Of a stretch of 64,000 bases of DNA, positions 41,140-64,000 are shown piece after piece. The stretch spans positions 28,819 through 92,818 of the forward strand of contig JAXDTZ010000014.1 in assembly GCA_034089705.1 (NCBI GenBank), written 5' to 3'. Made by a program: the position numbers and the translations under genes. Each line of letters starts with the position of its first letter. Positions within the stretch are counted from its first letter, which is position 1. The notes beneath the pieces were generated by a model. That model was not told where the DNA came from. It searched no databases and worked only from the letters and a program-made list of their open reading frames with translations. The DNA comes from Candidatus Enteromonas sp. GTDB lineage: Bacteria; Bacillota_I; Bacilli_A; RFN20; CAG-826.

Positions 41140-44100
41140 ATGAAAAACAGAAAAACCATGTTGTTTGTCCTCTCCACGGTGGCTCTTCTCGGCCTTGCCG
41201 CCTGTGGTACTCCAAACAGCAGCCTAACCCCCTCTGAGGAAGAATCGTCGACGATTAGCTCTGACGTCGAAGAAAGCGTTGGCTCGGAATTCGTATCCGA
41301 ATCCGATTCCGAACCTCAAGTTCGAAAATACGCCATCATCGACGATGCCGGGGACCACGTCTTCCTCAAAAACCTCCCCAGCGAAGCCGCGATGGGAGAA
41401 AAGATCACTTTCTCCATTGAAGCGGCCGAACCGGGATACGCCTTCACGGGAACCGTAAAAGGCACCTTCTTCGACAAATCGGCGGAGTTCCCCATCGCGA
41501 AGAACGAAGATGGAACTTACAGCTTCAAAATGATTTCCGCCGACGTCACAATCGTCGCCGAAACCGAGCCGATGGTCGTCCGTCTCAACTACGACCTCCC
41601 CGCGAACCGGGATCTCGCGGTCGACTTCTACCAAAAGGTCGATTTGCACACCTATGCGACCGCCGAATACCGCGCGGTTGCCGGCGTTTACCAGGGCGCC
41701 TGCAAAGACGGGACCTACGATCGTTTCTTCCGCCTCACCCTTGGCTACGACCGCACGTTTGTCATCGTGCGCGCCTCTTCGGAAGCCAACTTGGAGCAAT
41801 CCCCGGAAGTCACTTTCACCGGGACATATGTTTCCGAAGACCGCGGAGATGGTAACTACATCATCACCGTTCAGTACGAAACCTGCGATTCCGGCTATTA
41901 TTCCTCGCTCACTGGGGAAATCTACGTTACCTCGAACGCGGAAGGGCGCGCGGTCACCGCGATTGACCTGATCACCTCCGCCAGCGGAAGCTACCGTTAT
42001 GGTTTCCAAACCGGAAGCGGCGCTTTCATCGAAGGAGCCAAAGAATTCGAAGAAGGGACTTATCGTTACATCAAATGCGACGGGAAGCCCCAATACGGCT
42101 ACTACCAAGACGCGCTCTACGTGAAGCCGATCGCCAACAATTATTACGAAGAATCCGTCGTCATGGTCGATGACACGGTCTGCGAGAAGAACGAGGACGG
42201 ATACTATGTGGCCTCGCTTCCCTTCCATACCGCCACGATCAAAGTCGACAAACGCGTCCGTTATTCGCCCATCGTCATCCAGAAAGACAGCGAATATGTT
42301 AATGTTCGCGCCTATACCCGCGCGGAAGCCAAGGTGGACGGGGAAGTTGTCAAAGACGAATCTGGCAACACCGTTTACGAATACACCGAGGTCACGGAAG
42401 CCAAATACCAAGACGAAATCTACTTCAAGATCGAAGTGGACGAAGTGGAAGGATTCAAATTCAACGGCATGCGCGTCCGTTACGGCAGCAAGGCCTCCGA
42501 TTTCGTTGACACCCTGACCCACGCCTCCCAATTCACTCAAAACGCGGATGGCTATTATCACGCCTCTTGGACCAAGATGACCGACATGGACTATGGCATG
42601 ATCGCCACCGTCCAAACCGCCACCGCCTGGGCCACGGGGGATGACGCCGCCTTTGTCGTCACCGGGCAATCCCGCCAATTCGGCAGCACCCTCACGAGCG
42701 AATTCTCCGTGAACGAATACGGCGAAGCGGCCTTCGGAACCAAGAAATTCTTCTTCGGGAAAGACGATTATGACCCCGCCACCGGAAAAGTGGCTTGGCA
42801 CGCCTACCAAGAATCCGTCACCTACGACGGATATTACGAAGGCGGCCTTTACGTGGTCAGCGCCGTCAATACCTCAACTTCGATCAACAACGTTTATTTC
42901 GGCGTCAAGAACCTCTATGACGAAGAAGAAGCCGCGCTTCCCATCACTTACACCGAAACCAAAACGGCGGCCGGAGATTTCGCGATTGTCGACATCGCCC
43001 AAGGCGAATCCACCAAGACCGTCGTTCTCGGCGACTTCGATCCGGAAACCGGAACCGATGATAACGGCGTTTTCCACGATGCCATCACGGTTCATGGGAA
43101 CTACGAACTTCGCGTCCTCAATGGCGCGGAGAGCTACACCACTCCGGGCGCGGTTGTCGATGTTATGGACGGCGAAACCGTCCTCGCGACGTACAAGAAT
43201 TACAACTCGGTCCTCAAACCGTTCGTCAAAGGAACCGCGGGAACCTTTACCGCGGAAGGCCTTCCGACCATCGTTACGGACGGCTTTGGCGGCGTGACCA
43301 TCACCGCCAACCCCGGATCGGAAGAAGAAACGGTTGTGAACGCCTTCTTGACCTCCAGCGAAGCCACGGAAGAAGGCAAGGAAAACCTTTCGGTCTTGGC
43401 TACCAACGCGGACGGACACGTGGTCCTCTACGCCGTGACCCTCGACGTGGAAGCAAAAACCTATGTCGCTGGGAAAACCTTCGGCACCGTCATTTCGGGC
43501 AAAAACTATCGCGGCGTTTCCATCAATAACACCACTGCAGGAGTTTCCGGAGGCAGCGTCTACCTTCTCACCATCGGGGAAGGGGACAAACTTGGCACCG
43601 CCGTCTTCTATCAAGGGTCTTCGAGCACCGCTTACAAAGACATGGCCCTTTCTTCGGATGGCTCCATCACCGTCACGACCCCGGATTCCACGAATTATAA
43701 GGTGAATTTCACCGCCGACGGATCCTCGGTCATCGCCCGTCACAGCAATCCGAATAATTCCTCCGTCATCCTCACCGACAAGATCACCGCCACCTATGCG
43801 AGCTACTTTACCTTTAATAAGGTGAACGTCGCTGGCGGCGTCTTGGTGGAATTCACCCCATCCTATTCGAGCTATGGCACGCGAACCGGGCATCCGTTCT
43901 TCGTCCGGGAACTCGGCAACAACTGGGACATCGAATTCGTTGACGTTACCTACGCCGAAGGAAGCGAACAAGCCTTCGAAAAGGAAGGCGCGCGCTTCTC
44001 CTTGACTTTGGATGGCGAAGAATACGGGCCGTATTACAATACCGGCACCGCCATCGTCGCCGACGTTTCGGGAACCTATGTCATCGACGAAACCACCAAT

Positions 44101-44706
44101 TTGGAGATTGTCGGCGATAAGGTGACCTACAACGGGATGACCAAGACCTTCACCTTCGACACGACGACCAATACCGGTTCCTTCACGAATTTGGAAACCA
44201 CCGAGGAAGGCTCTTTCTTCAAAACCTATGAATTCGTTTTGGATACGGAAGCCATGACCGCCACCATTGAAGTGGTCAGCTCCGTTGCCATGGTGATTCC
44301 GACCATCGCCGACGAAGGATCCCTCTCTGGCTATGTCTGGACGCAGCAAGAGGATGGTTCTTGGGTTTCCCCGGGCGCCTTCAAATCCAACACCGCATGG
44401 CTCAACATCACCTGCGATACTTCCGGAACCTTGACGTTCGATTATCAAATCGGTTCTGAAGCCGGTTACGATTACCTCACCATCCAAACCAAGGTTGGCG
44501 ATGGATCCTGGACGACTCTCTCGGGATATTCTACCAGCGACAAATCCAGCAATTCCGGCGTTGTTTCCGGCTCGATCACTTTGGAAGTCGAAGCTGGGAC
44601 CGTGGTCCGCGTTGGCTATTACAAAGATAGCAGCGGGGATAAAAACGGCGACACAATCGTCGTTTCCAACGTCCTCATTGCCCCTTCGGCCGTGACCGAA
44701 GAGTAA
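41140..44706 (+). CDS. giant surface lipoprotein (1,188 aa), paralog A
   Basis: lipobox LGLAACG, S/E-rich linker, N-terminal recurrent module (…DGTYSFKMISADVTIVAETEP), long beta-rich body, conserved C-terminal ~115-aa domain (…DYLTIQTKVGDGSWTTLSGYS…). Confidence 0.85.
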   Translation: MKNRKTMLFVLSTVALLGLAACGTPNSSLTPSEEESSTISSDVEESVGSEFVSESDSEPQVRKYAIIDDAGDHVFLKNLPSEAAMGEKITFSIEAAEPGYAFTGTVKGTFFDKSAEFPIAKNEDGTYSFKMISADVTIVAETEPMVVRLNYDLPANRDLAVDFYQKVDLHTYATAEYRAVAGVYQGACKDGTYDRFFRLTLGYDRTFVIVRASSEANLEQSPEVTFTGTYVSEDRGDGNYIITVQYETCDSGYYSSLTGEIYVTSNAEGRAVTAIDLITSASGSYRYGFQTGSGAFIEGAKEFEEGTYRYIKCDGKPQYGYYQDALYVKPIANNYYEESVVMVDDTVCEKNEDGYYVASLPFHTATIKVDKRVRYSPIVIQKDSEYVNVRAYTRAEAKVDGEVVKDESGNTVYEYTEVTEAKYQDEIYFKIEVDEVEGFKFNGMRVRYGSKASDFVDTLTHASQFTQNADGYYHASWTKMTDMDYGMIATVQTATAWATGDDAAFVVTGQSRQFGSTLTSEFSVNEYGEAAFGTKKFFFGKDDYDPATGKVAWHAYQESVTYDGYYEGGLYVVSAVNTSTSINNVYFGVKNLYDEEEAALPITYTETKTAAGDFAIVDIAQGESTKTVVLGDFDPETGTDDNGVFHDAITVHGNYELRVLNGAESYTTPGAVVDVMDGETVLATYKNYNSVLKPFVKGTAGTFTAEGLPTIVTDGFGGVTITANPGSEEETVVNAFLTSSEATEEGKENLSVLATNADGHVVLYAVTLDVEAKTYVAGKTFGTVISGKNYRGVSINNTTAGVSGGSVYLLTIGEGDKLGTAVFYQGSSSTAYKDMALSSDGSITVTTPDSTNYKVNFTADGSSVIARHSNPNNSSVILTDKITATYASYFTFNKVNVAGGVLVEFTPSYSSYGTRTGHPFFVRELGNNWDIEFVDVTYAEGSEQAFEKEGARFSLTLDGEEYGPYYNTGTAIVADVSGTYVIDETTNLEIVGDKVTYNGMTKTFTFDTTTNTGSFTNLETTEEGSFFKTYEFVLDTEAMTATIEVVSSVAMVIPTIADEGSLSGYVWTQQEDGSWVSPGAFKSNTAWLNITCDTSGTLTFDYQIGSEAGYDYLTIQTKVGDGSWTTLSGYSTSDKSSNSGVVSGSITLEVEAGTVVRVGYYKDSSGDKNGDTIVVSNVLIAPSAVTEE

Positions 44707-44718
44707 AGGAGAACCCCA

Positions 44719-47700
44719 ATGAAACCATCGAAATTTCTTCTTGTTTTATCGGCGCTCGGGGCGATGACTCTCGCCTCCTGCTCCGTCGGGACGGATCCGG
44801 CTCCCAGTTCTTCTGAGCCGGTTTCCTCCCTTCCTAGCGACGTTAGCTCCGAAAGTTCGGTTTCCAGCGAATCGAGCGAACCGAGCGAACCCGAGGTCGA
44901 AAAATTCGACATCGTCGACGCCGTTGGCGACCACATCTTCGTCCATGGCCCCGTCCAGGCAGCCGAAGGCGAAGCCGTTTCCTTCCGCATCGACGTCGAG
45001 ATCGGGTATTCCTTCAGCGGAGTTATCGTGGCGAAGGATTCGGAACAAAACGTCCTCGACCTCGCCTTGAACGATGGGGAATACACGTTCACGATGCCGG
45101 CCTCCGCGGTCACCATTTCCGCCGAAACCATGGCCGCTTCTTACCTCCTCTCCTACTCTACTCCGGAAGAGCTTTCCCTCTCTGCTTATGAAATCGTGAA
45201 GGAAACCGAACTCGCGACGGAGGACCGGGAAGCCGTCGCCGGCGTTTACACCGGAACCCTCCAATATTACGACTATGGTTACGCGAATTGTGGACCCCTC
45301 ACCATCACCCTCGGGTACGATGGCTCCATCCACTTTGTGGAAGCCACCAGCGCCAGCGACTCCAGCGTGAAGTATGAAGCCGAAGGCGTTTATGAAGTCG
45401 AATGCCTCGGCGACGATACCTACGTCGTTCGTTTCGACCTCAAAACCGAAACCGGGGTTGCCGTGACTGGAAAGATGAAAATCGTCTCCAAAGTCGTTCC
45501 CGAAAGCGAGGTAGAAGGCGTTAATGTCCCCGAACACCGCGAAAGGACCTACACCGCCTCTTCCACTTACTACCTTGAAGTCAGCGGCAAGAAATACAAC
45601 CAAGGCAGCATTTCCGCCACGGGCGAAGCCGCGGAACTCGATCCGGAAAAAGACGTCTACCGCAAACTCGATGCCCTTCCCCAAGTTTGGGACTATTTGG
45701 ACCACTTCTATCTGAAGTCTTCCATCACTGACGAATACGTCGCCGGCTCCCTTTCGCTGAACGGGGAAGTGCTCGAAGCCAACGAAGAGGGTTATTACCG
45801 CATCGACATGCCGCATCACGCTTCGCGGATCGAATTGACCAAAGCCACCCGTTACGCTCCGATCGTTTCGGAAACCGATTGCCCGGGGCTCGAACTCAAA
45901 TCCTACGTCAAAGTGGTGGACGAACCGGTGGAGGAAGGCGGAGAAGCCACCTACCATTACGAAGAGGTCACCCAAGCCAAATTCAACGACCAAATCTATT
46001 TCAAAGCCGTGGATAAGGCCGACAGCGAAGTCCGTTATGGCTTAATCGGCATGACGGTCACCTATGGCCCGGGTTCGAGCAATTCCGTCAACTCCGTCTA
46101 CTCCATCAAGCTGAACGCCGATGGGTATTACGAATCCACTTGGCTCAAAATGTCCAATATGGATTTCGGCATGAGCGTTTCCTTCGTCGCGAATCCGGAA
46201 CTCCCGGAAAGCGAAGAACGTTTCGCCCTCGGTGCCGCCCTCACGGGTTTCGACTCCTATTCCTCCACAAAGGATTTCGCCGTGAACGAATTCGGCAAAG
46301 TCCTCTTCAACGGTTCGGAATATTACTACTCCACCGATGACATCGCCGAAGACGGCAGCGTCACCATGCACCGCTATACCTATGACGCCAGCCACGACAT
46401 CAAAGCCTACCGTCATAACGGCACCTGGGTTTTCCTCAAAGATTTGTCCAGCAACAAGCTCTCCTACTACGCCATCGGCGAAGCGGGAATTCCCGGCGCA
46501 GAGGGGGAAGAAGACCAAAAACCGTCCTTCTCCTTCTTGATGGATGCCTCGAGCGCTTCTAACGCTTCGACCGCCTTGGTGAACGTCACCCATGCCGACG
46601 GAACCTCTTCTTACGTCCAAATCGCCGACCTCGATCCGGAAACCGGCAAGGATTCCGAAACCGGCGTCGATCACGATGCCAAAACCATCCTCTGGGACGT
46701 AGACGTCGAGATCCTCAACGGGAAAGCGAGCATCGCCGACAAGGATGCCATCTTCGACATCAAGAAGGATGGCGAGATCGTGAGCACCCACATCAATGAA
46801 GGCGGCGTCATCGCCTCCTACGAAAAAGGGCCGAGCGGCACCTTCACCCGCGGTGAAGACGTGATCGTTTCTAACGGTGCGGGCCTCGTCACCTTCAACG
46901 GAGTCAATGTCCTGAGCTCCGCTTATGGCAATAGCGACGAAGGGAAAACCATCTCCTTCCTCGCCAAAGATGGCAATGTCGTTCGCCTCTACACGGTCGT
47001 CGTGGACGAAACCGCGAACACTTTTGCCCCGGCGAGCGGCAAGTCTTATGGAACCCCGGTCACGGGCGTTCGTCGCGGCGGATATTACAGCACCAGCGCC
47101 ACCATCAACTCTTCTAGTTATACGGTGAACCTCGGCGCGACCACCGAAACGGGAGAATTCGCTGAAGAAACCGCCGATGGATGCTATGTAAAAGTCGGTT
47201 GGACCGCTTATATTGGCACCTACAAGGTCAACTCCGATGGAAAAGTCGTCGCAAGCGTCGACGCTTCCGGAAGCACTTACAACTATGTCTTCGACTTCTC
47301 GGATGACGGTGAACTCGCCTTCTTCTACAAAGATGGCGATTCCTCCAAGTTCTACCTCTACTCCACCTTGGCGACGAGTGCCATGTCCTCGTCCAACACC
47401 AAACTCCTCGTTTCGAACTTCGGTTCGAAGAAGGTCTTCGCCTTGGTGCAAAACGGTTCAACCGCCGGCATCAGCGAATCGACCAACGTCCTCGTGCAAA
47501 ACGGATCGGAATACGCGCTCGGTAAGGTAACGCTTAGCGGCGAATTCGCTTCCTGGCATACCGAAGGAGCCACCTTCACTCTCACCGTCAACGGCGCGAC
47601 GAGCGGAGAACTCTCCTATGTCGGCGGGGAAATAAAGGCCAACATCACCGGCGATTACACCGTGGAAGGACACGACAACCCCGTTCACATCGACAATACG

Positions 47701-48273
47701 GGGACGATCACCGTCGATGGAGTGGATTACGTCTTCACGATGAAGGATGATGGGACTTTGAGTTACACCATCATGGATATTCAAGAGGAAGCGGGCAAAA
47801 TCGTGTTCACGACTTACACGGTGACCTACGATGTGGAAGCGAAAACCGCGACCATTGCCCAAACGGGCGTCCGCGAAACCGGGCTCTTCATTCCTTCCGA
47901 TGCCGGAAGCGATACGAGCAAGGTTTGGACGGAATCCGAAGGCGTTTGGACCTCTCCGAGTGGATTTAGCAGCAAAGCCATCTACCTCAACGTCGAATTC
48001 TTCGGCGCGGGGACCTTCTCCTTCCACGCCAAGATTTCTTCCGAGTCCGGGTGGGATTACCTCACCATCCAGACGAAGGCGGCCGGAGCCACTTCCTTCA
48101 CCACCCTTTCTGGATACTCCTCTTCCGAAAAGAAAGCGAATTCCGGGGAAAAGGAATTGGACATCACCATCGAAGTCACCGCTGGCATGGTGGTCCAAAT
48201 CGGCTACTACAAAGATGGCAGCGGAAATTCCGGTTCCGACTGCATCGTCGTCTCCAACATGGTTCTTGCTTAA
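44719..48273 (+). CDS. giant surface lipoprotein (1,184 aa), paralog B (tandem duplicate of 41140..44706)
   Basis: lipobox MTLASCS; collinear similarity to paralog A (KFDIVDAVGDHIFV / KYAIIDDAGDHVFL; AVAGVY; RYAPIV / RYSPIV; WDYLTIQTKAAG…VVSNMVLA); AAAGGAG RBS. Confidence 0.85.
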   Translation: MKPSKFLLVLSALGAMTLASCSVGTDPAPSSSEPVSSLPSDVSSESSVSSESSEPSEPEVEKFDIVDAVGDHIFVHGPVQAAEGEAVSFRIDVEIGYSFSGVIVAKDSEQNVLDLALNDGEYTFTMPASAVTISAETMAASYLLSYSTPEELSLSAYEIVKETELATEDREAVAGVYTGTLQYYDYGYANCGPLTITLGYDGSIHFVEATSASDSSVKYEAEGVYEVECLGDDTYVVRFDLKTETGVAVTGKMKIVSKVVPESEVEGVNVPEHRERTYTASSTYYLEVSGKKYNQGSISATGEAAELDPEKDVYRKLDALPQVWDYLDHFYLKSSITDEYVAGSLSLNGEVLEANEEGYYRIDMPHHASRIELTKATRYAPIVSETDCPGLELKSYVKVVDEPVEEGGEATYHYEEVTQAKFNDQIYFKAVDKADSEVRYGLIGMTVTYGPGSSNSVNSVYSIKLNADGYYESTWLKMSNMDFGMSVSFVANPELPESEERFALGAALTGFDSYSSTKDFAVNEFGKVLFNGSEYYYSTDDIAEDGSVTMHRYTYDASHDIKAYRHNGTWVFLKDLSSNKLSYYAIGEAGIPGAEGEEDQKPSFSFLMDASSASNASTALVNVTHADGTSSYVQIADLDPETGKDSETGVDHDAKTILWDVDVEILNGKASIADKDAIFDIKKDGEIVSTHINEGGVIASYEKGPSGTFTRGEDVIVSNGAGLVTFNGVNVLSSAYGNSDEGKTISFLAKDGNVVRLYTVVVDETANTFAPASGKSYGTPVTGVRRGGYYSTSATINSSSYTVNLGATTETGEFAEETADGCYVKVGWTAYIGTYKVNSDGKVVASVDASGSTYNYVFDFSDDGELAFFYKDGDSSKFYLYSTLATSAMSSSNTKLLVSNFGSKKVFALVQNGSTAGISESTNVLVQNGSEYALGKVTLSGEFASWHTEGATFTLTVNGATSGELSYVGGEIKANITGDYTVEGHDNPVHIDNTGTITVDGVDYVFTMKDDGTLSYTIMDIQEEAGKIVFTTYTVTYDVEAKTATIAQTGVRETGLFIPSDAGSDTSKVWTESEGVWTSPSGFSSKAIYLNVEFFGAGTFSFHAKISSESGWDYLTIQTKAAGATSFTTLSGYSSSEKKANSGEKELDITIEVTAGMVVQIGYYKDGSGNSGSDCIVVSNMVLA

Positions 48274-49687: not shown

Positions 49688-52600
49688 ATGAAAAAAACCA
49701 TTTTATTTTCTTTAGCCGCCGCTTCATTGCTCCTTCTTGCTTCTTGCGGAGGAAACAAGCCCGAAGCGCCTTCTAGCGAAGATTCTTCTTCCGAATCCAT
49801 CGTGAAAAAATACACCGTCCATTTCGACTTGAACGGAGGGGTGTTGCCAAGTGGAACGACCATCGAAGACCAACTCGTGGAAGAGGGGCATTGGGCGACC
49901 AAACCCTTGATTTCCCCGAGCAAAGCCCACAGCACCTTCTTGGGTTGGTTCACGGAGGACGGGTTCCAATGGAACTTCATGTCCCCCGTCATGGGCAACC
50001 TCAACTTGTTCGCCCATTATTCGGTGAACGAGGAATCCAAAGTCACCTTGACCTTCAACCCGAATAACGGCGAATCCTCTTACACGGTCGATACCTTCAT
50101 CGGGGATACCATTTCCACGAAGATCCCCTCCAAAGAAGGATTCGTCTTCAAAGGTTGGTATTACGGGGAAGGGAACCGCTTCACCGGTTACGTTTCCGAA
50201 GAAGTGGCCAAAGCCAAAACGTTGACGGCCCAATACGTCCAACAGGATTTCAACTACTATTTCGAGGTGAACGAAGACGACACGGTGACCATCACGGGCA
50301 TCCGCGACGTCAACTCCGTCGTCGTGTCCTTCCCGAACCAAATCAACGGGCGCGCGGTTACCCGAATCGGGAAAACCGCCCTCCAAAGTCGGATTTACGT
50401 CGAATCGGTCACCATTCCCGCCTCCGTGAAAGAGATCGAACCCCAATTTTGCAATGGGGCGAGGAGAATGGCGAGTTTCGAAGTCGAAGCCGGGAATACG
50501 GCGTACAAAGCGGAAAACGGAATTTTGTACAATGCCGATTTCACCGTGCTCGTCCGCGTGCCGGCGAAAGCCTTTTTGAGTTCTTCTTGCGTCATCCGTT
50601 CCTCGGTCAAGGAAATCGGGGCGTATGCCTTCTACGACCAAAAAGACGAAGGCATCAATAACGTCACCTTCCCCGAAACCTTAGAAACCATCGGGGAATA
50701 CGCCTTCTATGGCTGGAACAAAGCCACGAACCTCGCCTTCCCGGATTCCCTGAAAACCATCGGAAGCCACGCCTTCTGCGCGTTTGACACCGCCGAAAAG
50801 CTCACGATCAAGTGGGGAAATGGGCTAGAGGAAATCGGGGAGGCCGCCTTCTTCGGCCAATACGTCCACGACATCCTCGTCCTTCCCGAGGGATTAAAAA
50901 AAATCGGGGTCCACGCGTTCTCTTGCACGAATGGGGGCAACGCCATCACGAGCGTCGTCTTGCCTTCGAGCCTTGAAACCTTCGAAGGCGGGGTCTTCGC
51001 CAATTGCTATGGCATCGCCAAAGTCTCGATGAACGGGGAAAGCCCCGCCTACAAAGTCGAGGACAACATGCTGCTTAGCAAAGACGGCAAAAAACTCGTT
51101 TGGGTTCCTAGCGACCACAAGGGCAACATCGTCATCCCCGAGGGCGTGGAAGAAATCGGGGAATACGCCTGCGGGGAAATCCGGTACTACGATTCCCTGA
51201 CCTTCCCTTCCACCTTATCCAAAATCGCCCCTTACGCCTTCTTCTACAACGCGACCCTCACCAGCATCGAAATCCCTTCTTCGGTCAAAGAGATCGGGGA
51301 AAGCGCCTTCGACCGTTGCGAAAAGCTCGCTTCGGTCCAATTGAACGAAGGGCTCCAGCGCATCGGGCGGTACGCCTTTGCCGAGATTTCCGCTTCGAGC
51401 ATCTCCTTCCCCTCAAGTTTGAAAACGATCGGGGAGAACGCGTTCTTCGGATGCCGTTTCTCTTCCATCTCCTTCGCGGAAGGACTAGAAGAAATCCAAG
51501 ACGGGGCCTTCTATTTCCTCACCTCGAGTTACGAAGAAGATTCCTACGATTCCTATACTTCCTCTTTGGTGAATCTCTCCTTCCCCAATAGTTTGGTTTC
51601 CATCGGCGACCGCGCGTTTGCTAACCACGAAGCCCTCAAATCCATCACCTTTGGGAATGGATTGACCCACTTGGGGAGCGAAGCCTTCAGCGGGGCGAAG
51701 CCCACCCAATTGAGCGTTGCTTCGGGAGGAAACCTCGTCGTGAAAGACCTCGGGCTCTATTCGAGCGACTTCTCGACCCTCTTCTACGAATCTCCGGGAA
51801 AAACCGGCGAACTCTCCTTGCCTAGCGGCTTGAAGACGATCGCCCCCTACGCGTTAAGCAAAGTCGAAGTCACGGGAATCACCCTCCCGAATACCTTGGA
51901 AATCATCGGGGAAGGGGCGTTCTATGGCGCGTTTGACCGTAGCAGCGACATCTCTTTGACCTTCCCTTCTTCCTTGAAAGAAATCGGGGAAGGGGCGTTC
52001 TATGGCGCGAAAACCGATTCCATCGATTTCTCCACCGCCACCTCCTTAGAGACCATCGGGGCTTCCGCGTTCGAAATGAACGACGGCATTCAGGATCTCC
52101 ATTTCGCTTCCTCCTTGAAGGAAATCGGCAAAGATGCTTTCTATGCCTGCCCTACCACGAGCCTGCATTTCTCCGAAGGCCTCCTTTCGATCGGGGAATC
52201 CGCCTTCTTCGGGAACAAAAACTTGGGAGGGGAAGTCGTCCTCCCCGCCTCCTTGACTTCTTTGGGCGATTCGGTCTTCGGATCTTGGGGGAACACGACC
52301 GCTTCGGGGAACGAAATCACTTCCTTGCGGGTCGCGGAAGGATCTTCTTCCTTCTTTAGCGAGAACAACGTTGTCTACAACGCTTCGAAAACCGATGTTT
52401 ACGCGGTTGCGGGAAAGGCTAGCGGAACCATCTCCTTGCCTAGCACCGTGACGACCATCCATCCCTTCGCCTTGGCCGACGCGACTTTGGTCAGCGGCTT
52501 CTCTTTGCCCGAAGGCCTCCTCCACATTGGGGATTACGCCTTCTCCGGGGACGTGAGCGTTTCCCTCCTCACCCTTCCTTCGACCGTTTTGACCATGGGC

Positions 52601-52732
52601 GAACGCCTCTTCCATTCCTGGGGGACGAACCAAACGGTCAAAATCCCCCATAGCCTCGATTATTGCGAACGGCATTACCAATCCTATTGGAGGGATTCGA
52701 GCCGGGCGAACTTCGTATACGACGGGGAATGA
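49688..52732 (+). CDS. BspA-like leucine-rich-repeat (LRR_5) surface lipoprotein with two N-terminal Listeria-Bacteroides (Flg_new) repeats
   Basis: lipobox LLLASCG; YTVHFDLNGG…GWF…W.F and TLTFNPNNG…GWYY repeats; >20 tandem ~23-aa IG.YAF…SL repeats. Confidence 0.85.
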   Translation: MKKTILFSLAAASLLLLASCGGNKPEAPSSEDSSSESIVKKYTVHFDLNGGVLPSGTTIEDQLVEEGHWATKPLISPSKAHSTFLGWFTEDGFQWNFMSPVMGNLNLFAHYSVNEESKVTLTFNPNNGESSYTVDTFIGDTISTKIPSKEGFVFKGWYYGEGNRFTGYVSEEVAKAKTLTAQYVQQDFNYYFEVNEDDTVTITGIRDVNSVVVSFPNQINGRAVTRIGKTALQSRIYVESVTIPASVKEIEPQFCNGARRMASFEVEAGNTAYKAENGILYNADFTVLVRVPAKAFLSSSCVIRSSVKEIGAYAFYDQKDEGINNVTFPETLETIGEYAFYGWNKATNLAFPDSLKTIGSHAFCAFDTAEKLTIKWGNGLEEIGEAAFFGQYVHDILVLPEGLKKIGVHAFSCTNGGNAITSVVLPSSLETFEGGVFANCYGIAKVSMNGESPAYKVEDNMLLSKDGKKLVWVPSDHKGNIVIPEGVEEIGEYACGEIRYYDSLTFPSTLSKIAPYAFFYNATLTSIEIPSSVKEIGESAFDRCEKLASVQLNEGLQRIGRYAFAEISASSISFPSSLKTIGENAFFGCRFSSISFAEGLEEIQDGAFYFLTSSYEEDSYDSYTSSLVNLSFPNSLVSIGDRAFANHEALKSITFGNGLTHLGSEAFSGAKPTQLSVASGGNLVVKDLGLYSSDFSTLFYESPGKTGELSLPSGLKTIAPYALSKVEVTGITLPNTLEIIGEGAFYGAFDRSSDISLTFPSSLKEIGEGAFYGAKTDSIDFSTATSLETIGASAFEMNDGIQDLHFASSLKEIGKDAFYACPTTSLHFSEGLLSIGESAFFGNKNLGGEVVLPASLTSLGDSVFGSWGNTTASGNEITSLRVAEGSSSFFSENNVVYNASKTDVYAVAGKASGTISLPSTVTTIHPFALADATLVSGFSLPEGLLHIGDYAFSGDVSVSLLTLPSTVLTMGERLFHSWGTNQTVKIPHSLDYCERHYQSYWRDSSRANFVYDGE

Positions 52733-57845: not shown

Positions 57846-60673
57846 GGTTCCTCCAAGAAGAGGAGAGCGCAAAGGCCGACGGCTTTGCTGGAGAGTAGCC
57901 TCCCGGAAGCGCAAAAGGCCTTCATTTCTCCGGATTTGGATTTTAAAGAAAGGTCAAACGCGTCGAATTCTTCCGTTTTCCCTTCCGGGACCTCCTTCTT
58001 TTGGAGGCGCGAAAGAATCTCTTTCCCTTGTTCTGGGCAAAGGGAGAGGAAGTCTTCGTTGCGTTGGAGGAAATCGGATTCCCCTTCAAATCCAAGAGCG
58101 GTCCAAAGGTATTCGTTGGAATAGATGATCGATCCATCCCCTAGAGCGGAGAAATAGAGGATTCCTCCGGGGATGTTGGAAAGGAAATCCGCGCGTTCGT
58201 AGACCGAAGATACGTCGCGGAACAAAGCGAAATAAACCTCGGATTCCCCTTCGTTTTTGAGGTAATGGGTTTCCACGTTCAACACGATGGGCTTTTTCGG
58301 GGTTTGGAAGCGGATGGCGGCGGATCTCCCATTCTGGAAGAAGAGAGAAGCGAACTGCTCGCGGTCTTCTTCGCTGCAGCCGATTTTCGAGAAATCCCCA
58401 ATCGAAGGATCCCCTTCGTTCCAATCAAGGGAAAGGAGGCGCACGAAGGTGAGATTGGCGCTGGTTAGGCGGACTTCCCCTTCCCGTTTTTCGAAGAAGG
58501 CGATGGGGCCAACGAGGGAAGCCACCGCTTCGTCGGGATAATCGACGTCGATGAGGATTCTCGCCACGTCGCTTCGGCGGAGGCGGTGGAAGGGCAATTC
58601 AAACAGAGCGTTTTTCCTCGGTTCGTAGGCTTCCATCAAGGCCTCGAATTCGTTTTCGGGCAAAGGGAGGGAGAAATAGAACCCTTGGATAACGTCGCAC
58701 CCGCTGCCGCGGAGGAAGAGGAATTGTTCGCGGGTTTCCACCCCTTCGGCGATGACCGTCATCCCCAAATCCTGAGCCAAATCCATGACGTGGGTCAACG
58801 TGATTTCCGCGCGGGGGTTTCCGATCAAATCGATGAGGGATTTGTCGATTTTGATCACGTCGAAATGGAGGATGTCCATGGAGTAGAGCGAAGAATACCC
58901 GGCTCCGAAATCGTCCATGTCGAGGACGAATCCTTTTTGGTAGAGGGCATCCGCAAAATCCTTGACGTCTCGAGAAGAGATGGCCGCGGTTTCGGTGATT
59001 TCCAAGGGGACGAGGTTCAGCGGGACCCCATATTCTTTGGCGATTTGGCTATAGACTTCCGCGACGGGAAATTGGAACAAGGTGTTTCGCGACAGATTGA
59101 CCGAGATGGGAAAGAGTTTTCTCCCCAAGGCGATGTTCTTGGCTTGGAAAGCGCAGACGGCGGAGAAGACATAACGATCCATCGCGATGATTCGTTCGTC
59201 GCGTTCGAATACCTTGATGAATTCGGTCGGGGAGAGGATTTCCCCGTTCTTGATCCAGCGAACCAAGGCTTCCGCGCCAAAGAGTTCTCCTGTTTTGGCG
59301 GTGTATTTCGGTTGGTAATACAAAACGAATTCTCGGTTTTCGATGCCGGATTCGAAATCCTCTTGGAATTTGAGTTCGCGAAACAGATCGTCTTGCATCG
59401 TCGGGGAATACACCGCGGCGGCAATGGGGGTTTTCCCGTTCAAGGAAGAAAGGGCCAAACGCCCCCGATTGATGGCTTCGTTGAGGGAAATGCCTGCGGG
59501 GAGGCTCTTCACGATGCCGAACCGGAAATGGAGGTTCCGCAAGGGGGCGTGAAGGGTTATTCGATCTTTGGATTCTTCGATGGTTTGGAGCGAGATGCGG
59601 TCATTGGAATGGGCCAACAGGCAAATCCGATCCCCTTCGTAGCGCCCGACGAAGATGGCTCCGGGGGTGAGGTAGCAGCATTTGGCGAGGTATTGGATCA
59701 CCGCGTCTCCGCTAGAAAGGCCGTAGACGTTATTGATCGTTTTGAGATCCACGATGTCGGCGAGGATCAAATCCAACGCCTCGTCTTTGGCGGAAGAGAG
59801 ATAGTGTTCCGCTTTCGTGACGAAAGCTTGGCGGGTGAGGATTCCCGTGAGTTCGTCCCGTTCGAGGGAAGTGATCTTGTTCTCCTCTTGTTGGATCAGC
59901 ACGATATTGCGGGCGAATCGAACGATGGCCTCTTCGCTTCGGGAAGAGGGTTCGGCGCAGATGGCCCCGAAAGAAGAAAGGAGAGAAACTTGTTCTTCGG
60001 TTTGGGAATCCAAATAGCAAAGGACAGGCAGGTTATTTAGTAGCGGGCATTGGCTTTTGTGGCGGATGAAGCGATAGATGTCCTCGGTAAGGGAAGGGGC
60101 GAAGAAAAGGAAGGCGGAATATTTGTTGTGGTCTTTTTCGATTTGACGGAAGGACTCCTGGGTGAGTTCGAAGGGAGTCACTTCAAAGGATTGCTTCAAA
60201 AAAGAACTGACGGGGACGAGATGGGAGTCATAGACGAGCAGGGATTGTTCGTTTCCCCCAAAGCCGGTGAGGCGGCTGAGGGAACGCGAAAGGACGTAGG
60301 AATCTTCATAGCCGAAACCCACGATCGCCTTTTTGGAGTCGTCTCCTTTCCGGACGGCTTTGGCCTTGATGAAATGGATGCCGTCATCTTTTACAATGCG
60401 GTAATGCAGGGTGAAGGTGGGGACTTCGGAGATCAGGGCTAGGCAGTTCTTGGGATCGAACGAAGCGAGGAATTTTTCCTTGTCCCCGGGATAGACGATG
60501 CGTTCCGCGTATTCGTAAACGAAGGAAGAGAGGTCGCTTTTTTGGCCATCTTGGTGCAAGGGGCTTTGATTTCCTTTCACAAAAGTGAACGAAAGCGTCT
60601 CGAAATCGACTTCGACGACATCCTCGAAATCCAACGAGAGATAACAAGAAGGGGACATGTTCTGGGAATCCAT
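57833..60673 (-). CDS. PAS - degenerate GGDEF - EAL - PAS-PAS c-di-GMP phosphodiesterase
   Basis: ~946 aa; GGDEF motif degenerated to RYEGDRI; intact EAL signatures (AEALVRW, EITETAA, DMDDFGAGYSS, EGVETREQ, QGFYFS); PAS-like segments at both ends; track ORF starts at upstream TTG 60691. Confidence 0.85.
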   Translation of the reverse strand: MDSQNMSPSCYLSLDFEDVVEVDFETLSFTFVKGNQSPLHQDGQKSDLSSFVYEYAERIVYPGDKEKFLASFDPKNCLALISEVPTFTLHYRIVKDDGIHFIKAKAVRKGDDSKKAIVGFGYEDSYVLSRSLSRLTGFGGNEQSLLVYDSHLVPVSSFLKQSFEVTPFELTQESFRQIEKDHNKYSAFLFFAPSLTEDIYRFIRHKSQCPLLNNLPVLCYLDSQTEEQVSLLSSFGAICAEPSSRSEEAIVRFARNIVLIQQEENKITSLERDELTGILTRQAFVTKAEHYLSSAKDEALDLILADIVDLKTINNVYGLSSGDAVIQYLAKCCYLTPGAIFVGRYEGDRICLLAHSNDRISLQTIEESKDRITLHAPLRNLHFRFGIVKSLPAGISLNEAINRGRLALSSLNGKTPIAAAVYSPTMQDDLFRELKFQEDFESGIENREFVLYYQPKYTAKTGELFGAEALVRWIKNGEILSPTEFIKVFERDERIIAMDRYVFSAVCAFQAKNIALGRKLFPISVNLSRNTLFQFPVAEVYSQIAKEYGVPLNLVPLEITETAAISSRDVKDFADALYQKGFVLDMDDFGAGYSSLYSMDILHFDVIKIDKSLIDLIGNPRAEITLTHVMDLAQDLGMTVIAEGVETREQFLFLRGSGCDVIQGFYFSLPLPENEFEALMEAYEPRKNALFELPFHRLRRSDVARILIDVDYPDEAVASLVGPIAFFEKREGEVRLTSANLTFVRLLSLDWNEGDPSIGDFSKIGCSEEDREQFASLFFQNGRSAAIRFQTPKKPIVLNVETHYLKNEGESEVYFALFRDVSSVYERADFLSNIPGGILYFSALGDGSIIYSNEYLWTALGFEGESDFLQRNEDFLSLCPEQGKEILSRLQKKEVPEGKTEEFDAFDLSLKSKSGEMKAFCASGRLLSSKAVGLCALLFLEEPWNR

Positions 60674-60705
60674 AGCACAAGAAAAATCCAACGATAAAAG
60701 TATAC

Positions 60706-60724
60706 CCTATATTTCAAATATAGG
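60706..60724. promoter_or_regulatory. perfect 19-bp palindrome CCTATATTT-C-AAATATAGG in the divergent promoter region
   Basis: 9-bp arms around a single central C; 33-51 nt upstream of the GGDEF-EAL ATG; contains TATA-like -10 candidates on both strands. Confidence 0.4.
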
Positions 60725-60893
60725 AATTCGAAAATGATTCTTTTTTCTTGCGCCGAGGAATCCAAAACCCTTCTCCTTTTCGAAACAGAGGATCGATTCA
60801 TTGCCAAAAAACAAAAAAGAATGGGGACAGGTATGCGAATTCGGGGGATTTTGGCAAACGAAAGAAGAAAGGAATAATGAAACGGAAAGGAAA

Positions 60894-61400
60894 ATGGATT
60901 ACAATCCTTGCATGTTCCACATCGTCCTCGTTGAACCGGAAATCCCGCAAAACACCGGGAATATCATTCGCTCCATCGCCGCGACGGGCGCAATGCTCCA
61001 TTTGATTGAACCCTTGGGATTCCAAATGGACGAAAAGCACCTAAGACGCGCGGGACTCGATTATTTCCCTTTGGCGAAAATCCTCATTCACCCTAGTTTT
61101 GAAGAATACGAGGCGCGTTATCCGGAATCCCGGAAGTTCTTCTTCTCTTCTCACGCGACCCAAAGTTTTACGGAAGTGTCTTACCAAGACGGCGACCATT
61201 TGGTGTTTGGTAAGGAATCCGTGGGATTGTCCAAAGAAATCGTGGAACGTTATTCATCAAATCTCGTTCGCATCCCCATGAAAAAGGAAGCCCGTTGCAT
61301 CAACCTCTCGAACGCGGTCGCGGTGGGTTTGTTTTTCGCTTTGTATCAAAATGGGTTTCCAGGCCTAGAATCTTCTTCCCCTGACCCTTATTTGCCCTAG
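60894..61400 (+). CDS. trmL: tRNA (cytidine/uridine-2'-O-)-methyltransferase TrmL (SpoU-TrmD class)
   Basis: MFHIVLVEPEIPQNTGNIIRSIAATG closely matches the TrmL N-terminus; ATG 60894 (or 60912) preferred over the long TTG-initiated track ORF. Confidence 0.85.
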   Translation: MDYNPCMFHIVLVEPEIPQNTGNIIRSIAATGAMLHLIEPLGFQMDEKHLRRAGLDYFPLAKILIHPSFEEYEARYPESRKFFFSSHATQSFTEVSYQDGDHLVFGKESVGLSKEIVERYSSNLVRIPMKKEARCINLSNAVAVGLFFALYQNGFPGLESSSPDPYLP

Positions 61401-61729
61401 TCCCCTCGATGAAGGGAAACTTCTTTGGAAAATCCGTTCGGGAATCGATGAGATAGTTTTTCGATGTTTTTATCGAAGATTTCCTCCAAGGGAATCTCCA
61501 AATAGGTGGCGAGTTCGGCGAGATACCAAGCGACGTCTCCGAGTTCTTCCACTATTTTTTCTTTTGAAAGAGGATGGCCCTGCGCGAGGTGTTTTTTCAC
61601 GAGGTCGATCACCTCGCCGGATTCCCCGCATAACCCCATGACCCCGTTGATGAGCAGGTCGTTCCCGGTGAGTTCGGGGTTGATGAATTTTTTGGCTTCT
61701 TCTTGGTACTTATTGGGTTTCATTGGCAT
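61397..61729 (-). CDS. small MazG-like nucleotide pyrophosphohydrolase
   Basis: 110 aa; EELGDVAWYL EExxE/D metal-binding helix typical of the MazG/YpjD all-alpha NTP-PPase fold; convergent CTAG stop overlap with trmL. Confidence 0.72.
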   Translation of the reverse strand: MPMKPNKYQEEAKKFINPELTGNDLLINGVMGLCGESGEVIDLVKKHLAQGHPLSKEKIVEELGDVAWYLAELATYLEIPLEEIFDKNIEKLSHRFPNGFSKEVSLHRGD

Positions 61730-61862
61730 TCCTCATCGAAATTTTGATTCTTCTTCCCCTTGGATGCAAGGGGATATGGGGAAAAGGCAATAGCCAAACA
61801 ACCAAAGGAAGGCAACTCGATAAAGGAGATGTCGAAAAGGAGCCTCAGGTAAAAGAGAATGC

Positions 61863-62792
61863 CTAGTTGCTTAAGCGATATGTACCAAATTTGAAAACTT
61901 TATCTTCCACATTCGTTTGGCTTTCGCCATGATGGTACAGTCCATCGATGACTATTGCCCCATCCGTTAATTCAAAATTGCCTCGTAGATAAAAAACTGG
62001 CGGGTAATCGCTAGAAAACGTCATATCGTATTTGTCGCGGTCTTCGCGCCTTATGTGCTCATAGGGGTCATGGTCAATATAAAGATATATTGTCTTTTTA
62101 TCAGCGGAAGTCCAGTAGACTCCTTCCACCACTTCATCTCCGTTTTTATATTGAAATAAAGCGTGAATATAGGGTTTCGGTATGACGCATGTCATAGATA
62201 CATTTTCATCTAATGAATATGTTCCTTCCGGGATCTGATATTGTTTTGCGTATTTGTAATTATCTTGATCCCGTTTATGTTCTTTGCCTTCTAGAACATA
62301 GGTTCCCAGTTTATAGGGGAGCTCGCTGATTCTATATACATGCGTATAGATTCTCCCATCATTCATGCCTTCGTATCTTTCTTCTTTGATGGTCGTAAAT
62401 TGGGTGAAATCGGTCTCGAAATCATCTACATAGGTATAAAGCCAGTCTTTCTTTTCCGCGCCGTCTCTAGATAAAACAAAATTGACCGTAAAAGTATTTG
62501 CGCCATCATTTGGGTCATAAACGACTCGATAATGGCCTTCATATTTATCTTGACCATCTTCCACATATTTAAATGACATGGCGTCTTTGCTTCCGTCAAA
62601 TTCAAAGAAAGTATCCGATTGATCTTTCAATATCCATTTGCCGGTTGATGAATCAAGCTCTTCATCGTATTCGATGGTGCTATCGCTTTGATTTGCAGTT
62701 CCGTTAAATAAGCCGCATGCGGTTAATGAAAAGCTAGTCAAAAGGCAAAAAGCAGAAGAGAGAATAGTTACTACCTTATTACGCACAATCAA
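61863..62792 (-). CDS. lipoprotein (309 aa) encoded in a low-GC segment
   Basis: signal peptide with lipobox SLTACG; AT-rich codon usage unlike the rest of the window; no linker or module shared with the main lipoprotein array. Confidence 0.7.
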   Translation of the reverse strand: MIVRNKVVTILSSAFCLLTSFSLTACGLFNGTANQSDSTIEYDEELDSSTGKWILKDQSDTFFEFDGSKDAMSFKYVEDGQDKYEGHYRVVYDPNDGANTFTVNFVLSRDGAEKKDWLYTYVDDFETDFTQFTTIKEERYEGMNDGRIYTHVYRISELPYKLGTYVLEGKEHKRDQDNYKYAKQYQIPEGTYSLDENVSMTCVIPKPYIHALFQYKNGDEVVEGVYWTSADKKTIYLYIDHDPYEHIRREDRDKYDMTFSSDYPPVFYLRGNFELTDGAIVIDGLYHHGESQTNVEDKVFKFGTYRLSN

Positions 62793-63091
62793 AGCCTCCT
62801 TCTTTTGGCTTTCATTTTAAATTTTCAATGCCGTTTTTACTACTCTTATTCCATGAGTGTCTTTGTCTTCCGACGCAGCGGACGCGTGGAAAGGAATCGA
62901 GCCAATGGCAATCCCTCTTTTTTTCGGCCGTATGCGCTAAAAAAAGAAAAGTCGTGGCTTTGGGCGGAATAAGCCCCTGATTTCCGTATCAAGGGCTAGA
63001 TTCTAAAATTGTTTGTAAATAACAATATAAAATAGATAGGCTAAATGCCCTAGGTGTAACAACAAATTTGATCCACTGGTGGAAGATAAGA

Positions 63092-63520
63092 TTAAATTAG
63101 GGTTAATAAATAGCCCAGTATTGGTCCAATGAATATTGCGATATAGATTAGAGTGATCCATGGTTGATATTCAACGTAGAATTGCTTGAATGTCAAACTC
63201 CACGGATGCTTGATAATCACCCAGCCAAAAACATCGAATACAATACAAATCGAAACCCATATTGCTCCAGTAATGAATGCTTCTGCTATTGTTGGATTGG
63301 ATAATCCGTTCATGTAGATGAATCCAAACACTGTGAAAATGACAATATTGTACAAAGGATGCCATGGTTTGGTTTTCTCATATCCTTCTCCCATGGACTC
63401 TTTATCCATTGGTTTCATATGGAGAACGTAAATATTGAATATTGTATGAAGCATTCCAATTAATGTGACAATGATATAGGCAATCCAAAACCATAGCATT
63501 GAGAGTCCGAAATCTTGCAT
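63092..63520 (-). CDS. small integral membrane protein (142 aa, 4 TM), low-GC
   Basis: GGGAGG RBS 9 nt upstream of ATG 63520; four hydrophobic helices. Confidence 0.6.
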   Translation of the reverse strand: MQDFGLSMLWFWIAYIIVTLIGMLHTIFNIYVLHMKPMDKESMGEGYEKTKPWHPLYNIVIFTVFGFIYMNGLSNPTIAEAFITGAIWVSICIVFDVFGWVIIKHPWSLTFKQFYVEYQPWITLIYIAIFIGPILGYLLTLI

Positions 63521-63561
63521 TATTTACAACCTCCCGATAGCCATTTTATTTACCCAGTGTT

Positions 63562-63894
63562 TTATAGTCCCGTCATTTTCCAAGATGCGAATATATTTTT
63601 GAATTGAAGTTTATTTAAGCCTAGAATTGCGATTAACTCCATAGTCGTAATATTAGGATTATTTCTCATTTCCGATACAATTCTATTCATATTTAATCGC
63701 GACTTGTTCACTTTTTGCTCACTTTCTTGCTCGCTTTCTTGCTCGCTTTTGGATGTTTTGCGAGCAACAACACGATTATATTTTATCGAAACTTTTATAT
63801 AATCGGGTCCAAAATAGAAAGCGTCTTTGCCATAAGCGTCAACAATTAGACTTGACCGTCTCGGAATGGCATTCCGAAAAGTACCGGAAACCAA
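63562..63894 (-). CDS. hypothetical protein with C-terminal winged-helix/HTH-like segment and internal SEQE repeat
   Basis: 110-aa ORF; C-terminal NPNITTMELIAILGLNKLQ resembles a wHTH recognition region; start codon uncertain. Confidence 0.45.
   Translation of the reverse strand: MVSGTFRNAIPRRSSLIVDAYGKDAFYFGPDYIKVSIKYNRVVARKTSKSEQESEQESEQKVNKSRLNMNRIVSEMRNNPNITTMELIAILGLNKLQFKNIFASWKMTGL
63715..63750 (-). repeat. three tandem copies of a 12-nt unit (TTGCTCRCTTTY) inside the 63562..63894 ORF
   Basis: ttgctcactttc / ttgctcgctttc / ttgctcgctttt on the + strand; encodes SEQESEQESEQK in-frame. Confidence 0.6.
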
Positions 63895-64000
63895 CGGTTT
63901 ATTGTTTTTTGAAAAAATTAATCATTGCTCTTTAATGCTGCATATTCCTCTTCCAAACTTAAAACAAAGGACTCATTAGGGTAAAGATGTAAATCAAAAT

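Follow-up and report, generated by a model that had tools for sequence, protein, structure and literature searches.

The 3' end of a 64,000-nt stretch of the genome of Candidatus Enteromonas sp. (contig JAXDTZ010000014.1; the whole stretch is referred to here as the window, and all coordinates are window positions) is very low in GC and carries, on the minus strand, a lipoprotein gene, a gene for a four-transmembrane (4-TM) protein and the remnant of a winged helix-turn-helix (wHTH) gene. An earlier reading of the sequence (the original prediction) had taken this end to be a probable horizontally acquired island. Horizontal acquisition of the segment is indeed highly probable, because four independent lines of evidence support it, i.e., base composition, nucleotide identity to genes of distant genomes, differences in gene content among relatives and a substitution bias from AT to GC. 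The island part of the claim fared less well, as the foreign DNA appears to be a mosaic of separately derived blocks; we consider it very likely that the DNA from approximately 61730-61860 to the end of the window is a horizontally acquired patchwork, assembled in two or more events at a chromosomal position of variable content, and not one uniform island. The features concerned are as follows.

61397-61729, minus strand: gene for a MazG-like nucleoside triphosphate pyrophosphohydrolase, the host-side flank and the last gene of host-like composition
61730-61862, no strand: 133-bp spacer with the host/foreign junction, common to near-conspecific contigs and not shared by AT-rich relatives or the congener
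61863-62786, minus strand: lipoprotein gene (probably imported), 307 amino acids, GTG start at 62786 (the mechanically called open reading frame, ORF, starts at 62792)
62888-63008, no strand: 121-bp joint between the putatively imported blocks, without a match in any fetched locus and locally richer in GC
63009-63547, minus strand: 4-TM cassette, i.e., a leader of approximately 27 bp with a GGGAGG ribosome-binding site (RBS), a gene of 142 amino acids and a conserved tail of 83 bp
63092-63520, minus strand: 4-TM membrane protein gene, 142 amino acids, from a very strongly conserved family
63524-63894, minus strand: remnant of a disrupted wHTH gene, i.e., an ORF of 110 amino acids (63562-63894) and its frameshifted continuation
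63703-63749, no strand: 12-nt tandem repeat (TRF: 4.0 copies, 88% matches), reading SEQESEQESEQ in frame
63918-64000, minus strand: last 26 codons and the stop of another AT-rich ORF (GC 28%; final residues ...FDLHLYPNESFVLSLEEEYAALKSND) that runs off the window edge

Mean GC is 53.0% for the window, 53.7% for positions 1-60000 and 37.6% for positions 61800-64000; compared to 2.2-kb windows of positions 1-60000 (mean 0.537, standard deviation 0.021, minimum 0.486), the terminal 2.2 kb has a z score of -7.7. The abrupt 3' drop described by the original prediction is thus real, while the background of approximately 58% that it gave is too high (53-54%). No other part of the window comes near the terminal value (the lowest 900-bp host window has a GC of 0.456). 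GC falls stepwise from the EAL/GGDEF gene (0.525) toward the window end, through the SpoU-type methyltransferase (0.472; GC at third codon positions, GC3, 0.545), MazG (0.480; GC3 0.586), the lipoprotein gene (0.389; GC3 0.374), the 4-TM gene (0.357; GC3 0.392) and the HTH ORF (0.357; GC3 0.324) to the last 106 bp (0.283). With a host GC3 of 0.662 ± 0.059 (33 host genes of at least 150 amino acids) as the reference, the SpoU and MazG genes are lowish in GC3, yet within about 2 standard deviations of host genes. The three ORFs predicted upstream of MazG are present on the minus strand (a lipoprotein with an L-T-A-C lipobox, a 4-TM protein and a 110-amino acid ORF), and the AT-rich codon usage ascribed to them is borne out by a GC3 of 0.32-0.39 as compared to 0.66 ± 0.06 in the host; the segment thus shows the atypical base composition and codon usage of a genomic island or islet. 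Its intergenic DNA is likewise low in GC. The intergenic gaps in the segment are 133, 299 and 41 bp long (host median 16 bp), so that one of the claimed 300-bp gaps exists; the others are shorter, and 4 of 43 host gaps also reach 250 bp or more. As predicted, the low-GC block runs off the window, its DNA continuing to the last base.

The genes could in principle be native, their low GC reflecting function (membrane and secreted proteins rich in AT-coded residues, perhaps weakly expressed), and in many metagenome loci the 4-TM gene does lie 5-15 GC points below its surroundings, so that its deficit is partly intrinsic to the protein. The deficit seen here, however, is found at third codon positions (0.32-0.39 vs. 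0.66), beyond amino acid content, and extends to intergenic DNA; moreover, the genes are 87-94% identical at the nucleotide level to genes in genomes of 26-37% GC with unrelated neighbours, and host relatives lack them at this place. We give a native origin next to no chance.

The closest relatives of the genes in the segment are found in distant genomes. Comparison of the proteins, which had been proposed as a check on the original prediction, found matches in distant, AT-rich contexts for both the lipoprotein gene (87% nucleotide identity) and the 4-TM gene (93.5-95% in the coding part), while sampled relatives of the host core genes show much lower similarity (57% amino acid identity for TrmL, approx. 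72% nucleotide identity for the syntenic congener). A relative of the lipoprotein (P0002, 85% amino acid identity) is encoded on three contigs of 27% GC (L001-L003), where the 87% nucleotide identity is confined to positions 61857-62841 (-49 to +6 relative to the gene), and a further relative (63% amino acid identity) is encoded on a contig of 29% GC (L004). Because the GC3 of the gene in L001 (0.21) and L004 (0.16) matches that of its neighbours (0.16-0.21), the lipoprotein family appears to be at home in AT-rich genomes. When substitutions were polarised with L004, the window lineage showed 48 changes from AT to GC and 3 from GC to AT, as compared to 6 and 11, respectively, in the L001 lineage. 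The 48:3 bias is a signature of amelioration in a GC-rich host; a model of the amelioration of imported DNA is said to have been given by Lawrence and Ochman in 1997. For the 4-TM gene, the window lineage showed 11 changes from AT to GC and 2 from GC to AT. L001-L003, which are three independent Logan contigs, all begin exactly 147 bp upstream of the lipoprotein gene, and this common start hints at a repeat or variable junction in the AT-rich genome as well.

The junction between host and foreign DNA lies in the 133-bp spacer upstream of MazG, homology to L001 stopping at 61857. On the host side, contig L031 (ENA ERZ11466799) is near-conspecific (96.8% nucleotide identity to positions 60011-61796) and spans the 5' end of the EAL gene, the SpoU gene and MazG, plus 67 bp upstream of MazG. 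On the foreign side, contig L008 (SRR29133982) is 97% identical to positions 61734-62887 and diverges completely beyond approximately 62887. L008 and L031 were assembled from two further samples; the 63 bp that terminate L008 (61734-61796) are also those with which L031 begins, and both contigs match the window there. The join of the lipoprotein gene to MazG is thus supported by three assemblies from three samples, and it is real. An assembly or binning chimera, i.e., a 53% GC contig wrongly joined near 61730-61860 to DNA of a lower-GC organism, would produce a compositional change at the window edge such as the one seen, and neither short contig alone spans the whole join (L008 ends at 61734, L031 starts at 61796). 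The agreement of L008 and L031 over the 63 bp of spacer they share nevertheless gives the same join in three independent assemblies, the low-GC genes have an intermediate composition (GC3 0.37-0.39), and the strong AT-to-GC bias is specific to the window lineage, as expected from residence in a GC-rich genome. A chimera is thus very improbable.

Gene content at this position differs among relatives. Where the window has the 4-TM block, L008 (positions 172-507) contains a RhuM-like gene that is truncated (PADLOC candidate defence family PDC-S05/S23, 1e-25), with a GC3 of 0.23 as compared to 0.36 for the adjoining, already ameliorated lipoprotein gene. Because of its GC3 of 0.23, the RhuM-like gene appears to be a fresher import than the lipoprotein gene, and the contrast indicates layers of different age. 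The 121-bp joint in the window is delimited by the end of homology to L008 near 62887 and by the end of homology to L020, L022, L023, L033 and L113 at 63009/63010. A second comparison was provided by seven contigs (L024-L030; seven SRR81981xx samples, approx. 49.5% GC) of a congener, in which MazG is 81% identical at the amino acid level and the order MazG, GGDEF/EAL, ThiF, rubredoxin and response regulator is shared with the window at approximately 72% nucleotide identity. Upstream of MazG, these contigs carry an ORF of 77 amino acids (a membrane-protein fragment), a TetR-like fragment and the 3' part of a tRNA gene, and this DNA, in L024, showed no homology to the window. Relatives that universally carry the same genes at this position, which would speak against acquisition, were hence not found; the content is different in L008 beyond 62887 and in L024-L030 upstream of MazG. 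The tRNA piece of the congener lies approximately 730 bp upstream of MazG, ends in ...GCCA, has the anticodon loop CTTGAAA and matches the Rfam tRNA/tmRNA clan (E = 5e-4); with the anticodon read by eye, it is a tRNA-Ser (UGA). The spot filled in the window probably lies between mazG and a tRNA-Ser gene. The contigs from all seven congener samples end inside the 3' part of the tRNA, and the TetR-like and 77-amino acid fragments represent gene debris at the corresponding spot in the congener too.

The 4-TM gene behaves like a cassette with sharp boundaries, for which no mobilisation machinery is recognisable. The edges of the block are constant, its start lying approximately 27 bp before the ATG and its end 83 bp after the stop (63009/63010 in the window). 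Compared to copies in four other genomic contexts, the block is 90-91% identical at the nucleotide level (93.5-95% in the coding part); it occupies positions 63009-63547 of the window, 1671-2211 of L020, 81-621 of L022, 284-821 of L033 and 1538-2077 of L113, and is flanked as follows.

L020, L021 and L032: AlbA_2-HATPase_c_4-HTH gene upstream, MatE gene downstream
L022 and L023: tRNA-Arg and a 66-amino acid HTH stub upstream, P-type ATPase gene downstream
L033 and L113: AAA_14-DUF4143 gene upstream, M18 aminopeptidase gene downstream (seen in L033 only)
Window: HTH remnant upstream, lipoprotein gene downstream

The upstream ORFs, although of different families, terminate within the common leader of the cassette, in different frames. 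The GC3 of the cassette is 0.29-0.39 regardless of that of the neighbouring genes (0.14-0.21, 0.40-0.45 or 0.66), so the 4-TM gene is compositionally foreign in the AT-rich genomes too (0.30-0.34 vs. 0.14-0.21). Contigs encoding 4-TM proteins with 96% identity belong to AT-rich genomes, not to the host. With its single ORF, very short leader, short conserved 3' tail and constant ends in at least four unrelated contexts, the block resembles an integron gene cassette; unlike such cassettes, it has no attC-like hairpin, and upstream ORFs read into it. The 83-nt tail does contain an imperfect direct repeat, but an attC-like structure was rejected, since the tail folds no better than shuffled sequences (z of -1.4 to +0.1, both strands). 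Neither an integron integrase nor a cassette array was found in any 4-TM context examined, and the block does not class as an integron cassette. On a speculative reading that we consider improbable, the gene forms, with its leader of approximately 27 bp and its 83-bp tail, an autonomous mobile unit that is transferred by a mechanism not yet described; if this were true, the window would show a single insertion of a cassette that moves widely and codes for a strongly conserved, uncharacterised membrane protein. The cassette is a feature worth a dedicated further look.

Signatures of mobile elements were also searched for. The checks that the original prediction had proposed (integrase, tRNA/att sites, flanking direct repeats) gave nothing within the window, which contains no tRNA gene, tRNA-Ser remnant or Rfam family and no flanking direct repeats above chance; promoter- and terminator-like sites were no commoner than in shuffled sequence. 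The visible part accordingly does not have the makeup of a classical integrase island or of an integrative conjugative or mobilisable element (ICE/IME). Plasmid records gave no DNA match and no match to the lipoprotein, and the segment does not class as plasmid-derived. Among 50,697 phage records there was no DNA or protein match, and among the 2.9 million viral contigs of IMG/VR there was no relative of the lipoprotein or the 4-TM protein; with weak PHROG matches only and no relatives in phage genomes, the segment does not class as prophage. A phage or plasmid origin of the segment was rejected on the lack of relatives in phage, IMG/VR or plasmid DNA.

These data bear on a rival explanation, i.e., that the low-GC block is the edge of one integrase-borne island, ICE/IME or prophage at a tRNA-Ser gene just beyond the window and that the ORFs are its cargo. 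Such an element would fit the tRNA 3' part located approximately 730 bp upstream of MazG in the congener and the breaking of contigs from seven samples there, AT-rich DNA that reaches the last base of the window, and the placement of the HTH stub and 4-TM gene of L023 directly beside tRNA-Arg. On the other hand, the two blocks differ in their nearest relatives, in divergence (87% vs. 94%) and in degree of amelioration, and near-conspecific L008 holds one block and not the other. Neither protein is related to viral contigs or phages or has a meaningful PHROG match, there is no plasmid DNA match, and the near boundary has neither a tRNA fragment nor a direct repeat. A single island is thus possible but unlikely, and nothing in the visible part supports it.

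Under the patchwork reading, the first block would be a single surface-lipoprotein gene from a family at home in uncultured Bacillota of 26-30% GC; it would be the older import, resident long enough for its GC3 to drift from approximately 0.2 to 0.37. The second block would represent a later arrival of the sharply bounded 4-TM cassette, together with the broken wHTH gene that precedes the 4-TM gene elsewhere, and further AT-rich DNA with another ORF end would continue past the window. Entry may have occurred by piecemeal recombination rather than on one integrase-borne element, and the site may be a hot spot of recombination or integration that adjoins tRNA-Ser, as in the congener. The segment resembles flexible-genome islets and islands at tRNA-proximal hot spots in its atypical GC and GC3, presence/absence at the strain and species level, gene debris and directional AT-to-GC drift, as well as in having a tRNA gene adjacent to the corresponding locus of a relative. 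It differs from them in that the window holds no integrase, att repeats or tRNA, in that it is made of separate single-gene blocks, and in that only approximately 2.2 kb are visible. While gene import at a variable chromosomal spot is ordinary, and an islet with amelioration is of a well-known kind, the segment would record the passage of genes from strongly AT-rich Bacillota of the gut to a poorly sampled lineage that is much richer in GC; amelioration would be seen here in progress, with imports of different age next to each other.

Several points weigh against this reading. No integrase, transposase, recombinase or other mobility gene was found in the visible segment (ORFs of 61700-64000), and the far boundary of the low-GC block lies beyond the window. 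The joints are known from assembled contigs alone, and the nearest syntenic relative is only approximately 72-80% identical at the nucleotide level, so the comparison is not one with a true empty site. The 4-TM block may not stem from the AT-rich genomes, where it is compositionally foreign as well, and a sequencing error might explain the HTH frameshift, which falls within an A-run.

The HTH-like gene, which the original prediction regarded as a phage- or mobile element-derived gene, is not intact but a disrupted remnant with a 1-nt frameshift. Compared to L022 and L023, the window is one A short in the A-run just after the LGLNK codons (AAAGAAAACTTC vs. AAATAAA-CTTC); because this A is absent, the continuation after LGLNK (TSIQKYIRILENDGTIKH...) lies in another frame, and its TAA (63524-63526) lies shortly ahead of the start of the 4-TM gene. 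The repaired peptide matches HTH_24 (E = 7e-6), while the unrepaired 110-amino acid ORF matches no family (best PHROG E = 0.11); this ORF has a weak TTG start with an in-frame stop just upstream. The remnant is probably non-functional. At the same position, L020 carries a gene for a 442-amino acid AlbA_2-HATPase_c_4-wHTH protein, the stop of which overlaps the 4-TM start, and L023 carries the 66-amino acid HTH stub. The remnant shares position, orientation and, after repair, the C-terminal wHTH with these putative AlbA_2 (Schlafen-like)-HATPase_c_4-wHTH regulators, and differs from them in that AlbA_2 and HATPase_c_4 are absent and the HTH is frameshifted; as the wHTH alone is detectable, and only after repair of the frameshift, it is not assigned to this class. 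The N-terminal 55 residues of the ORF showed no significant similarity to the L020 protein by tblastn; judging from position only, they might derive from HATPase_c_4, a similarity seen by eye and without statistical support.

The 12-nt repeat lies in the linker of the HTH ORF and is made of GYGARCAA octamers at 12-bp spacing, with one inverted octamer copy at 63760-63775 (TTGCTCGC), 13 bp from the repeat. In L023 (approximately 300-365), the same octamers occur in inverted arrangement and straddle the start of the 66-amino acid HTH ORF. Because the octamers are arranged differently in L023, and homology between L023 and the window breaks inside the repeat at 63722, the repeat appears to be unstable. 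The repeat that the original prediction called typical of mobile-element or phage genes is therefore real and unstable, but it is not specific to a phage or mobile-element origin. The octamer array might serve the HTH protein as an operator and not be linker-coding sequence only. Metagenome contigs searched for exact DNA matches to the repeat region gave none, and the ORF end at 63918-64000 had no relative among the fetched loci.

The segment carries members of two widespread, uncharacterised families. One is a lipoprotein with a putative lipocalin-like fold in tandem; the other is the 4-TM protein, in which many His, Asp, Glu and Trp residues are invariant. For the lipoprotein, the GTG start at 62786 fits the RBS spacing and the 307-amino acid length of the closest relatives. 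The protein has a signal peptide and a lipobox (...SFSLTAC(26)G; lipobox defined as [LVI][ASTVI][GAS]C), with C26 invariant in 34 homologues, and the N-terminal helix of the model comprises residues 6-28. The rest of the model has two predicted lipocalin-like beta-barrels in tandem. The lipoprotein may bind small or hydrophobic molecules on the surface of the cell. There are 112 unnamed homologues; no Pfam, NCBIfam, PHROG or PADLOC family was matched, apart from weak hits in PHROG (best E = 0.0024) to uncharacterised families. Among lipocalin-like (calycin) bacterial lipoproteins, it was compared to Tp0751 of Treponema pallidum (PDB 5jk2) and to lipocalin-like proteins of Bacteroides (4gzv, 4qrl), from which it differs by its two predicted tandem barrels, by a sequence identity of only 10-16% and by the lack of a Pfam family.

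The AlphaFold2 model of the 4-TM protein is a four-helix bundle (pLDDT, the predicted local distance difference test score, 89) with no specific structural neighbour in a fold search, and the protein had no match in Pfam, NCBIfam, PHROG, PADLOC or PDB sequences; distant family members likewise have no Pfam match. At 70-96% identity the family numbers more than 1500 clusters, and 55 alignment columns are invariant; at 50% identity there are 251 clusters, all of them stand-alone proteins of approximately 140-170 amino acids. The invariant residues, which include H25, N29, D39, E45, E48, K51, W53, H54, D96, H105, W107 and Q119, suggest an enzyme or transporter, and the conservation of the family (70-80% identity across contigs of 26-70% GC) is unusual for an unannotated small membrane protein. 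The window copy may encode a functional membrane enzyme or transporter. In 80 metagenome loci (26-70% GC) the gene had no conserved neighbour, as 71 upstream ORFs fell into 50 clusters and 69 downstream ORFs into 53; a conserved two-gene module (regulator or ATPase plus 4-TM, e.g., a defence system) was rejected on this ground. PADLOC, too, gave no match for either the 4-TM protein or the lipoprotein. The only plasmid relatives of the 4-TM protein (35-39% amino acid identity, annotated as hypothetical) are on megaplasmids of the Bacillus cereus group, where those of Bacillus toyonensis and B. cereus (L114 and L115) lie among GNAT acetyltransferases, an IS4 transposase, an erythromycin esterase and an AbiH gene, surroundings that represent accessory neighbourhoods. 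A literature search on these Bacillus accessions found nothing, and exact look-ups of the 4-TM, lipoprotein and MazG proteins of the window found no identical entry on record.

On the host side, the assignment of the flanking gene as MazG-like, made by the original prediction, was confirmed by a match to PF03819 (E = 3.1e-10, 40.6 bits against a cut-off of 22). The gene also matches phrog_229, but it is syntenic host DNA. The host, an anaerobe of approximately 53-54% GC, belongs to a poorly sampled lineage; among 185,579 GTDB species representatives, the best relative of its TrmL (57% amino acid identity) is in a Bacillota metagenome-assembled genome of 51% GC, and it is not syntenic. The SpoU/TrmL-like methyltransferase gene (60801-61400, plus strand) lies between MazG and EAL in the window and in L031 and is absent in the syntenic congener, where a 388-bp spacer of 36% GC (1129-1515 of L024) is found in its place, with a 35-bp stretch 97% identical to positions 60809-60843 of the window; this presence/absence represents a second insertion or deletion difference adjoining the patch. 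The remaining window is ordinary chromosomal core, including infB (IF-2), ftsK, a type I pullulanase, cyclic di-GMP signalling proteins and a leucine-rich repeat (LRR) adhesin. Two adjacent ORFs on the plus strand (41140-44706 and 44719-48273, approx. 1185 amino acids each) had no NCBIfam match at 1e-10; they lie next to the 1014-amino acid LRR adhesin-like protein (49688-52732), with which they may form a large surface-protein cluster.

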